Positions 36,095 through 64,000 of a DNA stretch of 64,000 bases are shown here, piece by piece. Each line of letters starts with the position of its first letter. Positions within the stretch are counted from its first letter, which is position 1. The notes under the pieces are model-generated. The model had not been told where the DNA came from and did not search any database. It saw only the letters and a list, made by a program, of their open reading frames with translations. This stretch comes from a virus (Duplodnaviria > Caudoviricetes), in the IMG/VR virus record IMGVR_UViG_3300031994_000062, positions 1 to 64,000 of that record, one strand, 5' to 3'. The position numbers were made by a program, and so were the translations under genes.

Positions 36095-37508
36095 CTATTG
36101 TGTTACTCAAACCACGCGTTAAGCGATTTGAGAATTATTTATAAATGGTTTAACATAGAGATCTTCATATATGTTATACTTTCTAATTAAATACATATCA
36201 GCGTCCTTATAAAGATAATCTAATAATTTTTTAGCTTGGATTCCTCCTCCAATTGAAACTATCTTATTACTTTTATTCGGATGATAATAGATTGAACAAT
36301 GAATTTTAAGCTCGTCTTCTATAAATTCCTTAAGTCCATCCATCATTAGACCAGATCCGATAAAACTGACATGCTTATATTTGGGATTTTTAGTAATATT
36401 ACCGTCCCCATCTAGATAGCCCCTAATAAAATGCCGCATTAAACCACGATTTAGCCAAAACGGAAATTTTAAAATATGACTTTTACAAGGAACAACTCCA
36501 CATTTATTTAATGAATTAGCCATATATTTGTTATGAATTCGCAACACATACGAATTCTGCACATTTCCTTTTTTAGATGAATTATCTACAAGCACCAATG
36601 GTTTATCATAATTTAATTCTTTATTTATACTTTCGAGGATATGTTTGTCTCGCTCCTGTAAACTTAACGTAATAATATATCCTTTTTTAGATACATTTCC
36701 ATCAGCATATAATAATCCTAGTATATATGCTTTATTAGGAGTATCTATTTTATCAAAATATGTTTCATCTAAATGATATTTCTTATTAAAGTCAGTACGC
36801 TGTCGTATCTTAATCCCATTTGACTTTAGAATATTCGAAATTACTTCATGTCCTATATGCATCTCTTTACCTATCTCTTTAATGGTTTTATTGTATATAG
36901 AATACATATTTATTACTTTGTCAACTTCATCTTGAGATATTTCCCTATGCTGAACTTTTATTCCCATTCTAGTTAAAAAATTTCCAACACTTCCTGCATT
37001 TAGATTATATTTTTCAGCAATTTCTCTATTAGTAAATCCATCAAGTCTCATCTGAGCAAATTCATCTCCATGTTGTTTAAAAAACAATGCTGTTTCTGTT
37101 TTATTCATACTAATTCCTCCTAAAAATGTATAAAAAAATAAGACCATAATCGTCGCATTTAGGAGCTACGGCGAAACGGGAGCTACCCGCTGTCTGGTCT
37201 TATTATCAACAGTTAATTTATAAATAATTTTCTTATGCTTTCACATAAGTACAGACTATATCATCACCATATCTAAAAAGATTTAGGTGTCCTCCACAGG
37301 ATCCACTTGGATCGCTTAGTCGTTGAACCTTTCCCTATTCGGGACTTGGCTGCTGATTGTCCAATCTTTATAATTTTCGACATTCACGTTTGAGCATTTC
37401 ATCTCTGCGTTGTAGTTTATAAAGCTCTAAGGAGTTTCCAGCAATTCAAAGGATTCATTTGCATAATTTCTTATTGCAACGGACAATTCTAACTAAATAG
37501 TTAGTTTC
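36095..37508 (-). mobile_element. Group I intron (1414 nt), endonuclease ORF in the P9 region
   Basis: AAUUGCUGGAA, AAUCAGCAG, UCAACGACUA, GAUAUAGUCU, P2 uugca/ugcaa, P8 cacc/ggug. Junction gau|gaa gives RWLDEISYSLDN. P1 pairing is short, so the exact 5' site is less certain. Confidence 0.85.
36119..37108 (-). CDS. Intron-encoded double-motif LAGLIDADG endonuclease with N-terminal HTH
   Basis: AYILGLLYADGNV and FIRGYLDGDGNI. ATG 37108 follows aggagg. Confidence 0.9.
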   Translation of the reverse strand: MNKTETALFFKQHGDEFAQMRLDGFTNREIAEKYNLNAGSVGNFLTRMGIKVQHREISQDEVDKVINMYSIYNKTIKEIGKEMHIGHEVISNILKSNGIKIRQRTDFNKKYHLDETYFDKIDTPNKAYILGLLYADGNVSKKGYIITLSLQERDKHILESINKELNYDKPLVLVDNSSKKGNVQNSYVLRIHNKYMANSLNKCGVVPCKSHILKFPFWLNRGLMRHFIRGYLDGDGNITKNPKYKHVSFIGSGLMMDGLKEFIEDELKIHCSIYYHPNKSNKIVSIGGGIQAKKLLDYLYKDADMYLIRKYNIYEDLYVKPFINNSQIA

Positions 37509-52290: not shown

Positions 52291-52315
52291 TTTAACGCCT
52301 CCTTTTATTTTATTA

Positions 52316-52398
52316 CGCCAATACCATGATTCGAACGTGGACAACTCGAAAGTTGGACAGATTAGCAATCTGCTGAGATACCATTACTCCATATTGGC
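52316..52398 (-). tRNA. tRNA-Ser(GCU)
   Basis: Acceptor GCCAAUA/UAUUGGC, loop UU-GCU-AA, long variable arm, T-loop UUCGAAU with one T-stem mismatch. No encoded CCA. Confidence 0.85.
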
Positions 52399-52404
52399 AC
52401 ATAA

Positions 52405-52489
52405 CGACAAGCGAGGGACTTGAACCCCCAGTGCCCGAAGGCATCACCGGTTTTCAAGACCGGCTCCTTACCAATTAGGATAGCTTGCC
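52405..52489 (-). tRNA. tRNA-Ser(UGA)
   Basis: Acceptor GGCAAGC/GCUUGUC, CCGGU-CUUGAAA-ACCGG, variable arm with UUCG loop, T-loop UUCAAGU. Confidence 0.9.
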
Positions 52490-52495
52490 TAATAA

Positions 52496-52568
52496 AGCCC
52501 CAGGTAAGACTTGAACTTACAACCTGCTGATTACAAATCAGCTGCTCTGCCAATTGAGCTACTGAGGC
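52496..52568 (-). tRNA. tRNA-Thr(UGU)
   Basis: Acceptor GCCUCAG/CUGGGGC, GCUGA-UUUGUAA-UCAGC, T-loop UUCAAGU. Confidence 0.92.
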
Positions 52569-52619
52569 TGAACAGCACTATAAAAACATAGCGCCATCAC
52601 AAAAGATAAATAAACTATT

Positions 52620-60026: not shown

Positions 60027-61039
60027 TTAATCTTCAAAATATTCTTTTGCAATATCGTATTTTCGTTGCAAAAAAATAGTGGCATCCTTATATAGGAAAC
60101 CACAAATTTTCTTGATATCATCTATCCGTCGATATCGAACTTGATACATTCCTGGAAGATGAGACCTAATATCCACTTTAAAATTATTTTCACCATATGA
60201 CTCTTTTAAAAGACTGTCAAAGTCTTGACAAAACTTTTTAGAGTTTTGATATACAGCAATTACTTTATCATGCTTTTTTCTACTGGCTATTGTACCATCG
60301 CCATCAACCAAGCCCCTTAAAAAATGTTTGATAAGGTGCTTTGGGACTTTTTCTTCAATATTTTTAAACGATTCAGAATTATGAGTTTTATCAGGAACTA
60401 TATCGAAAACACTTAAATCGTCAAATATTTGTTTAGAATTACAAGATTCAAACTTAACAAAATCTCCTAATCCTTTATTTGTTTCTATTTGTCGATAGTA
60501 CAAATCATTTCCACATTTTAATTCTTCGGCTAATTTTTTAACTATAGCATCGTCTTTTCTTTGCAGTTCAATTGCTAAAAAATAACCACCATTATGAATT
60601 CTAACATAACCATCGGTGTAAATAAGACCAAAAAATAAGCTTTTGCCTCTGTGTCGATAATGCTAAAATAATCATCAACAAAATTAATATTTTTCTCATC
60701 TCTTGGCATTTTGAATGTATTTAATGTTAAACCATTTTCTTTAGCTATATTAGATACGGTAGTACAAGTCGAACCTGTTAATCTAGCTATTTCAGAACTA
60801 TGCACTCCGTCCTTAACCATATTAATAATTTGTGATATCTTTTCCTCTGAGAGTTTACAATGTTTTACTTTTTTAATTTCGTTGTTGATTAAAAAATTAT
60901 TTATCGCTGGATACGACATTTCAAGGTCTCTAGAAATTGCAGATACCGTCATACCGTTTTGAAACATATCAATAATTTTTAATCCTAATTCTTCTGTAAA
61001 TGGTTTTTTACATCTTATCGGCAATTTCACTAGCTTCAC
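60027..61039 (-). pseudogene. Free-standing LAGLIDADG endonuclease with a frameshift in motif 1
   Basis: AYFL at a T6 run near 60630-60635. The -1 frame continues GLIYTDGYV... into ORF 60027..60503, which has FLRGLVDGDGTI. Confidence 0.85.
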
Positions 61040-62253: not shown

Positions 62254-62433
62254 TTAATCCTCCTTAACTATGATGTCTTCTCTATACTTATAAAGCTTTT
62301 TGAGAGCACGAGGATTTTCGGTAAGATAATACCGCTTGGATTTAGATTTATGTGTTTGTGAACTAACATGAACATATTTTCCCATTTTATTTTCTCGCAA
62401 ATAGTCAGCTTCTCGTCTTGCAATTAAAATCAT
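62254..62433 (-). CDS. Small basic hypothetical protein (59 aa)
   Basis: Not in ORF track. MILIARREADYLRENK...KRYYLTE...; contains the phoH RBS at its end. Confidence 0.65.
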   Translation of the reverse strand: MILIARREADYLRENKMGKYVHVSSQTHKSKSKRYYLTENPRALKKLYKYREDIIVKED

Positions 62434-62469
62434 ACTTTCACTACTTTCTTTAATTTATTTTTTTTAAAC

Positions 62470-62490
62470 AAAAAAGGGGCATATGCCCCT
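62470..62490 (-). terminator. Intrinsic terminator closing the ncRNA region
   Basis: aggggc-atat-gcccct followed by tttttt. Confidence 0.8.
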
Positions 62491-62494
62491 ATAT

Positions 62495-63010
62495 AAAAGT
62501 TCAAAAAAGATCACCCCTGATCCTTGAACGAATTTCCCGACACAGAGTCGAACTGTGTTTCTTCCTATATAAATAGGACCACGCAGGAAGTAGGAGAGAA
62601 GAGTAGTAATCTACTCCTCGGTACTCCTTTTAATCCTTTGCTAACGCTGAGATTATGCGTTTCGCAGAAAAAACTTTACGAGCATTATGAGTTCTCTCGT
62701 TATCCACTTACTGCCGTTTCCGCACAATAAGTATTCTCTCATGGCTGCCTTTTTTATAGTGTGGCGATTCACTATTTCTACAAAGCTACTCTACCTTCCC
62801 TATTCCGTTAACGCTGCCGCGCTATAAATTCCCGCTAAGAAAACCGTGCAAGGTCCAATAAACTTATCAGAGTCTTGCGAGACTCCTCAAAGACACCATT
62901 ACATTGCTGCTGGTGTATTAAGCCACTTTCACTTTGCATAGGCACAGACTTTCGCTTTAATAATTTGATCATCTGTCTATTGTAAATAAACCCTGTATCC
63001 AATGGTTCTT
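62495..63010 (-). ncRNA. Large structured ncRNA, ROOL-like candidate
   Basis: No credible ORF. Many helices (62870-62885, 62893-62916, 62756-62775, 62707-62731) and a T-arm ACACAG-UUCGACU-CUGUGU at 62540-62558. Family name comes from recalled resemblance and size. Confidence 0.55.
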
Positions 63011-63039
63011 TTTATTTATAATATGTTTATATACATCCT

Positions 63040-63515
63040 TTGATTACGTGCTGCGCCAGTGGCTTCGTAAACTTTTGATCTACAAAATACCACACGCAAC
63101 CATGCTTTCGGCCCGTTTGCCTACTAACGTCTCATAAGCTAATGGGAAATCCCACTCACTTAATCAATGGATACCGCCCTCGCGCAACGTACACTTGGAC
63201 TGTGTGCATCCTCCTGATTCACCTTCGCATATTCGTAAGTTTGCATGAGCTATCCAGATTGCGGTCCGGAAACCTTCTCTCAGCACTTGCCGTTGATCCG
63301 GCTTATTGCTCCATACTTCATATGTTATATCCGCGCGGGATTTATATACCAGCACGAATCGCCGCCTTTTGAGCGACAGGCATGTCAGTTCTGCTTGAAT
63401 TGACCATTATACCTACAATGGCGACAAATACAAGATGTAAATATTTGCCTTTACGTAAGTCACCCTACGTTATCTGTGTCAAGCCACATTGCATAGATTT
63501 AACGTCCCTATGCAG
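63040..63515 (-). ncRNA. Large structured ncRNA, GOLLD-like candidate
   Basis: Long-range helix 63350-63360 with 63042-63053 encloses ~300 GC-richer nt. A string of hairpins lies at 63361-63514. Family name not verified. Confidence 0.5.
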
Positions 63516-63520
63516 ACGAT

Positions 63521-63591
63521 TGCTACGCCCAGGTACTGCCCCTGGTTAAGACCGGCTTATGAGGCCAGTTAAGATCTTACCTTCCGCCAGC
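63521..63591 (-). tRNA. Degenerate tRNA-Met(CAU)-like element
   Basis: Anticodon arm CUGGC-CUCAUAA-GCCGG, T-arm CCAGG-GGCAGUA-CCUGG with a non-canonical loop, bulged acceptor stem, weak D-arm. Confidence 0.5.
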
Positions 63592-63726
63592 TATGTTATT
63601 TATACTCGCCCCCTCACCAGGTAGAATAGAGGAGGTAACGGTGCGGCAAGAGAGCGAGTTTCTAAAGGAGTGTGAGTTTTATGATCTCACTTCGAGTTGA
63701 TTATATGATTAATATAAACGGCTAAT

Positions 63727-63999
63727 TTATCTTACTAATTCTTTGAAGGAATTAGCAAACTTGCACTTCGGTGCATGTTTAGCCGGGACTGTAATAGCTT
63801 CACCAGTCTGAGGATTCCTGGACTGACGTTCTGCCATGTACTTTCTACTCAGCTTAACACCATCGATAACCTGAATGTCATCGTCGTTATTCAGTGCTTC
63901 AATAACGATTTCACGGATGGCACCAACAACAACCTTGGTGTCCTTCTGTGTAAATCCTGTTTTTTCTGCAATTTTCTTAATAAAATCTGCTTTCTTCAT
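63727..63999 (-). CDS. hup: HU-family histone-like DNA-binding protein
   Basis: MKKADFIKKIAEK...RQSRNPQTGEAITVPAK...PKCKF. Confidence 0.93.
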   Translation of the reverse strand: MKKADFIKKIAEKTGFTQKDTKVVVGAIREIVIEALNNDDDIQVIDGVKLSRKYMAERQSRNPQTGEAITVPAKHAPKCKFANSFKELVR

Positions 64000-64000
64000 T

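Follow-up and report, generated by a model that had tools for sequence, protein, structure and literature searches.

The stretch at positions 63040-63515 of the window (the whole 64,000-nt stretch of viral DNA analyzed here) is very probably the 5′ domain together with hairpin P14 of one ordinary full-length GOLLD RNA, which lies on the minus strand and spans 846 nt (63488-62643). The long-range helix that had been proposed to close this stretch is a chance match and is not kept by related phages. The helices that were found in its place carry compensatory changes across six lineages of large human-gut phages.

Family assignment and extent of the RNA

The Rfam model RF02032 (GOLLD) matched positions 63102-62644 on the minus strand with 205.4 bits, end to end (model positions 1-416 of 416). 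Membership was judged by a score at or above the gathering score of RF02032 (150 bits) over the whole model, and the match was above it. GOLLD was the sole Rfam match at E ≤ 1 within 62300-64000, and it was matched once only in the 85-kb virus record that contains the window. Rfam ROOL gave no match at E ≤ 1 on either strand of 62300-64000.

RF02032 models the conserved 3′ domain of GOLLD only. The solved env-38 GOLLD (833 nt) is divided into a 5′ domain of lower conservation (residues 1-420) and the conserved 3′ domain (residues 421-833; PMC12286853). Since the model covers the 3′ domain alone and the env-38 layout has two domains, 63040-63515 was read as the 5′ domain followed by P14, the hairpin with which the 3′ domain opens. 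The core of the RNA is bounded by the conserved GGCUUGAC at its 5′ end and UAAUCUCAGC at its 3′ end; this distance is 846 nt in the window, and relatives range over 835-892 nt. GOLLD RNAs were expected to have a 5′ domain of ~300-420 nt and a total length of ~700-850 nt, and the values found were 386 and 846 nt. The parts of the RNA are as follows:

62643-63488, minus strand: full-length GOLLD RNA, 846 nt (Rfam match to the 3′ domain, and homologues of 835-892 nt aligned over the entire span)
63103-63488, minus strand: 5′ domain, 386 nt (RNAalifold consensus)
63041-63102, minus strand: P14, the first hairpin of the conserved 3′ domain (Rfam structure line and covariation)
62957-63040, minus strand: variable A/U-rich linker J13/15, differing in length and sequence and unalignable across lineages
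62643-62956, minus strand: rest of the conserved 3′ domain, equivalents of P15-P27 (Rfam alignment, compensatory pairs in RNAalifold), ending in the UAAUCUCAGC hairpin

The first-pass annotation had named the stretch GOLLD-like and proposed the Rfam search. The name was right: the match above the gathering score, on the adjoining and overlapping 63102-62644 (minus strand), belongs to the same RNA. The further description as a compact RNA of under 500 nt, or else a new motif, did not hold, as the RNA has the usual GOLLD size and the stretch is the 5′ domain of an RNA matching RF02032. The range 63040-63515 does lie in GOLLD, with the true ends of the RNA at 63488 and 62643; beyond the 5′ domain it takes in a single 3′-domain hairpin.

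The helices of a GOLLD 3′ domain, from P14 onward, should be maintained by compensatory changes. P14 had 23 pairs, 91-96% of them paired in the alignment and 12 compensatory. Base pairs of P14 also count among the significantly covarying ones in the published GOLLD alignment, which is gapped and covers the 3′ end only (Kretsch et al. Supplementary Table 3). The A-rich loop expected at L14 was present as CAAAA (63077-63073) and was invariant in all 21 aligned sequences. In solved GOLLD, L14 is the donor of the inter-subunit A-minor bridge B6 (PMC12286853). A tRNA scan of the window found no tRNA in the linker (62957-63040).

The proposed closing helix

The minus-strand sequences of the two arms are GAUUCGUGCUG (63360-63350) and CAGCACGUAAUC (63053-63042), which are complementary over 11 Watson-Crick pairs with a single bulged U (duplex −13.2 kcal/mol). 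The first-pass annotation was accurate in the letters of both arms, and small hairpins are indeed present before the 5′ arm, where it had placed them. The 501 nt around the arms were strongly structured (fold z-score −3.7 compared with shuffles). Their minimum-free-energy fold left out the closing helix and formed P14 (63102-63041) together with a local hairpin (63359-63329). When the 501-nt region was shuffled 500 times with its dinucleotide composition preserved, a long-range helix with 11 or more Watson-Crick pairs and one bulge arose in 7.4% of the shuffles, and an uninterrupted long-range match of 7 bp or longer in 98%.

The comparison with homologues gave the same result. In 15 aligned sequences, 43.8% of the closing-helix cells were paired (shuffles 44.5%), and in 21 aligned sequences from six lineages 46.4% (shuffles 47.7%), with no compensatory pair in either set. 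At most 6 of the 11 pairs were formed in any of the 94 other unique sequences. The two local helices that compete for the same bases (63359-63329 and P14) were 95.8% paired in the 15 sequences and compensatory at 17 of 33 pairs; none of 500 shuffles was as good, and slid controls were 45-58% paired. The base of P14 kept 8-9 of 9 pairs in the 94 other unique sequences; the local hairpin was complete, with all 10 pairs, in 78 of these and retained 6 of 10 in a lineage in which it is shortened. The 5′ arm (63350-63360, minus strand) is inside this local hairpin and has no conserved pairing with 63042-63053. The 3′ arm (63053-63042) overlaps the 3′ strand of the P14 base (63049-63041), which Rfam pairs to 63102-63094.

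Conservation in homologues had been named in the first-pass annotation as the test of the helix. In the 15-, 21-, and 95-sequence comparisons it was not conserved, its pairing equalled that of shuffles, and the covariation that had been looked for was found in the competing local helices instead. The closing helix is thus a chance match.

Secondary structure of the 5′ domain

The RNAalifold consensus of the 5′ domain had 87 pairs in 15 helices, with 98.9% of the cells paired and 34 pairs compensatory, and slid-partner controls were ~40% paired. For the whole RNA, the consensus had 206 pairs, of which 89 showed compensatory change. The secondary structure of the 5′ domain is under selection and is supported by covariation. 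Its main elements are:

63393-63484, minus strand: P1-like helix (63484-63479/63398-63393) enclosing three hairpins, in the alignment consensus
63470-63453, 63449-63429, and 63428-63403, minus strand: the hairpins inside the P1-like helix, in the alignment consensus
63214-63388, minus strand: long-range helix (63388-63378/63224-63214) that closes a branched sub-domain
63329-63359, minus strand: local hairpin of 10 pairs, 100% paired and 5 compensatory, containing the 5′ arm claimed for the closing helix
63211-63169 and 63167-63131, minus strand: two long hairpins, in the 5′ domain consensus

The P1-like helix had one compensatory change, from A-U to G-C, in one lineage (L032). The helix closing the branched sub-domain consisted of 9 pairs, was 100% paired in the 21 sequences, and had 3 compensatory pairs; enclosed in it are the hairpins 63377-63361 and 63359-63329 and a forked arm (63311-63247). 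A short element bearing a conserved GAAA was also part of the consensus. The actual long-range helices of the domain are therefore 63484-63479/63398-63393 and 63388-63378/63224-63214. The expectation of a long-range helix was correct in that one exists, at 63388-63378/63224-63214 and not at the pairing that had been proposed. RNAalifold additionally gave weak long-range pairings that differed between alignments (columns 1-3/523-525 in A2; 63057-63048/62949-62941 in A3).

Homologues and distribution of the 5′ domain

Blastn against phage GenBank records retrieved a single relative, MT835469, a 176-kb phage record from human faeces. Its copy was 62-69% identical to that of the window and is directly flanked by tRNAs, one preceding the 5′ domain and one following the 3′ domain. 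Pattern scans of IMG/VR and of human-gut metagenome contigs yielded ~150 homologous loci, most of them on contigs of ~90-250 kb. From these, 127 full-length copies (95 unique) were recovered, all 62-66% identical to the window, and every representative tested passed the RF02032 gathering score. The 21 aligned homologues represent six lineages of large human-gut phages.

The spread of the 5′ domain was assessed with an IMG/VR sample of 114 loci chosen by a generic motif of the GOLLD 3′ end. By nhmmer, 101 of the sampled loci matched the 3′-domain profile of the clade and only 11 its 5′ domain. These 11 loci form one clade, and 10 of them fell within one of 21 clusters (91 full-length pieces). 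Covariance model R1 (last ~110 nt of the 5′ domain), applied to the other GOLLD clusters with filters off, found nothing credible (best E = 0.87). Covariance model R2 (first ~100 nt, i.e., P1 and its three hairpins) found the module in two loci (L035, 27.9 bits; L091, 15.3 bits). Outside this first ~100-nt module, no sequence or covariance-model similarity was detected between the 5′ domain and ~20 other GOLLD clusters. Most of the other clusters carried words seen in env-38 rather than those of the clade of the window.

The 5′ domain is a clade-specific variant with one shared module, and its type is largely confined to one clade. The recurrence of the R2 module suggests that GOLLD 5′ domains are built from modules. 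This clade-specific 5′ domain is the sole mildly new aspect of the RNA and fits the variable 5′ domains of the literature.

Two further observations were made on these loci. The R2 module sits at the 5′ start of otherwise dissimilar GOLLD loci (L035:3292-3387 and L091:3534-3641, both minus strand), and the words that recur in it are GGC.U..C...GAUA and GUCAAU..A.GCAA. A 17.6-kb IMG/VR contig (L010:4295-4811) carried a tRNA and a GOLLD 5′ domain 99.6% identical to MT835469, turned to unrelated coding-like DNA ~40 nt before P14, and had no 3′ domain; the switch is either an assembly chimera or a natural truncation.

Flanking elements and neighbouring genes

In all relatives examined, tRNA genes abut both ends of GOLLD with gaps of 3-60 nt. 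The location expected of a GOLLD RNA, in a phage beside tRNA genes, was found here as a virus record whose relatives have tRNAs on both sides. The flanks of the RNA in the window contained the following elements:

63521-63591, minus strand: tRNA-Met-like element just upstream of GOLLD (CUCAUAA anticodon loop, 5-bp anticodon stem, T-stem, and altered T-loop GGCAGUA)
62534-62589, minus strand: acceptor-like stem and canonical T-arm minihelix (GUUCGACUC; CACAG-UUCGACU-CUGUG), between the GOLLD 3′ end and the terminator
62475-62490, minus strand: intrinsic-terminator-like hairpin followed by a U run
52315-52569, minus strand: tRNA cluster Ser(GCU), Ser(UGA), Thr(UGU), ~10 kb from GOLLD
63999-63727, minus strand: HU-like DNA-binding protein
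62249-61008, minus strand: PIN-PhoH protein

At the site of the tRNA-Met-like element, other lineages have a normal tRNA-Met or tRNA-Pro. The minihelix has no D arm or anticodon arm, and relatives have a full tRNA (Arg, Pro, Lys, or Asn) in its place; the minihelix is possibly a handle kept for RNase P/Z, or else the rest of a decayed tRNA. The hairpin 62490-62475 is the probable end of the primary transcript. A promoter scan found no sigma-70-like promoter upstream of GOLLD on the minus strand.

An element homologous to the tRNA-Met-like one was observed at L016:5970-6050. It has the same ends (AUAGCUGGC...GGCGUAGCAA) and a canonical T-loop, and differs from the window element by compensatory changes in the anticodon and T stems. 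Neither of the two elements was called by ARAGORN or by Rfam (window: E ≤ 1).

All neighbouring genes were on the minus strand, and GOLLD, carried here by a large human-gut phage, lies between the HU-like gene and the PIN-PhoH gene. The other neighbours included pieces of LAGLIDADG endonuclease and a ClpP-like protease. Two adjacent ORFs of 154 and 158 aa at 60027-61039 (minus strand) matched the N- and C-terminal halves of the phrog_4645 endonuclease family (LAGLIDADG_3) and look like a split or frameshifted homing endonuclease gene. A group I intron (Rfam RF00028, 87.9 bits) was found at 37232-37504 on the minus strand.

Alternative explanations

The closing helix might be real and private to this lineage, forming an alternative, non-assembling conformer that sequesters the 3′ strand of P14 and acts as a folding or assembly switch. 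The nearest relatives retrieved are only 66% identical to the window, and a search for closer relatives of its lineage returned none above that value. Taken alone, the helix (−13.2 kcal/mol) is slightly stronger than the P14 base (−11.5) or the local hairpin (−11.8), and its alignment-free duplex energy is an outlier (−16.9 compared with a median of −3.2). However, it would break two helices that covary in every lineage, it is used in neither the minimum-free-energy fold nor the centroid fold, 7.4% of the shuffles equal it, and the six other lineages hold no trace of it. Such a switch is considered very unlikely. Still less probable is an arrangement of two large RNAs in tandem, GOLLD-like at 63040-63515 and ROOL-like at 62495-63010. 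The two halves do fold as separate domains, and contig L010 has the 5′ domain followed by unrelated DNA. Yet it is the supposed ROOL-like half that matches Rfam GOLLD, while ROOL itself is unmatched at E ≤ 1; each of the 127 full-length copies recovered has the halves contiguous and in the same order, and the solved GOLLD RNAs are likewise built of two domains. A single GOLLD RNA, and not a tandem of two giant RNAs, makes up the 1.2-kb island.

The least probable reading, to which we give almost no credence, is that the stretch encodes small proteins and that its RNA structure is incidental. Several overlapping ORFs of 52-76 aa are present (e.g., 63142-63372 on the plus strand and 63164-63355 on the minus strand), but the substitutions compensate each other within base pairs, the stretch tolerates indels of 2, 10, 13, and 16 nt, and the adjoining sequence matches an Rfam family, GOLLD.

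Comparison with solved structures and putative assembly

The single full-length GOLLD RNA preferred here was compared with known RNAs of this kind. The RNA of the window and env-38 GOLLD have in common the 3′ domain (P14-P27), the invariant L14 CAAAA loop, a variable linker after P14, a total length of ~850 nt, the two-domain layout, the phage location, and the tRNA neighbours. The disordered internal linker of env-38 corresponds to the J13/15 linker that follows P14 in the window. In a by-eye comparison, the words GGCUU(U)GACAGAGAU and GAGCAAUAAG recur in env-38 in a different order. With most other GOLLD clusters, the 5′ domain of the window was not alignable by nhmmer, and one of the two sub-domain covariance models found nothing. 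The GOLLD of S. agalactiae, likened here by description, is from another host group and has another length than the window RNA. It shows that a GOLLD whose 5′ domain is reduced or altered can still build a cage and that copy number is set by the 5′ domain, a role that the flagged stretch would share. ROOL RNA is also large, ornate, and associated with phages, lies near tRNAs, and builds cages from RNA only (8-mer or 6-mer); in sequence and fold it is unrelated to the GOLLD of the window.

Env-38 GOLLD forms a 14-mer cage (PDB 9MEE; Kretsch et al. 2025, PMC12286853). In S. agalactiae, the 700-nt GOLLD assembles as a 12-mer and the isolated 3′ domain mostly as a 10-mer (PDB 9L0R, 9LMF; PMC12990946). 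Among GOLLD RNAs, cages are known from these two only. These cages are closed, dihedral, and protein-free, with the 3′ domains as a ring and the 5′ domains as a cap that enforces one copy number (PMC12286853; PMC12990946). The ideas published on the function of the cage include the enclosing of tRNAs or other cargo, and GOLLD expression has been reported to be higher during lysis (PMC12286853).

By analogy with these structures, copies of the window RNA would assemble without protein into a closed dihedral cage. The 3′ domain (P14-P27) would make the ring, via contacts such as the L14 CAAAA loop, and the 5′ domain would be the cap that fixes how many copies join. As the window RNA keeps the 3′ domain, the L14 CAAAA, and the variable linker, the cap domain is the best reading of the flagged stretch. 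Both the formation of a cage and its copy number are extrapolated from distant relatives, since beyond its first module the 5′ domain is unlike those of ~20 other clusters. The tRNA genes that abut both ends in relatives suggest co-transcription with tRNAs and release by tRNA-processing enzymes: the GOLLD RNA would be made within a tRNA-type transcript, from which these enzymes probably cut it out.

A more far-reaching proposal, which we regard as possible and on balance doubtful, is that the 5′ domain is a structurally distinct cap module and that the tRNA-like elements in the flanks are retained processing handles, not decaying tRNA genes. If the cap module were indeed distinct, the copy number or geometry of the cage would be unlike the known 12-mer and 14-mer.

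Implications

As a standard Rfam scan already names the RNA, its identification carries little weight as a discovery. The analysis corrects a misreading, in that the GOLLD RNA here is not compact and its closing helix is nonexistent, and it documents a well-populated GOLLD clade (~150 contigs) in large human-gut phages. In this clade, the 5′ cap domain has covariation support and differs from the solved examples. As the copy number of the solved cages is set by the 5′ domain, the clade offers a natural variant for testing how the cap controls assembly.
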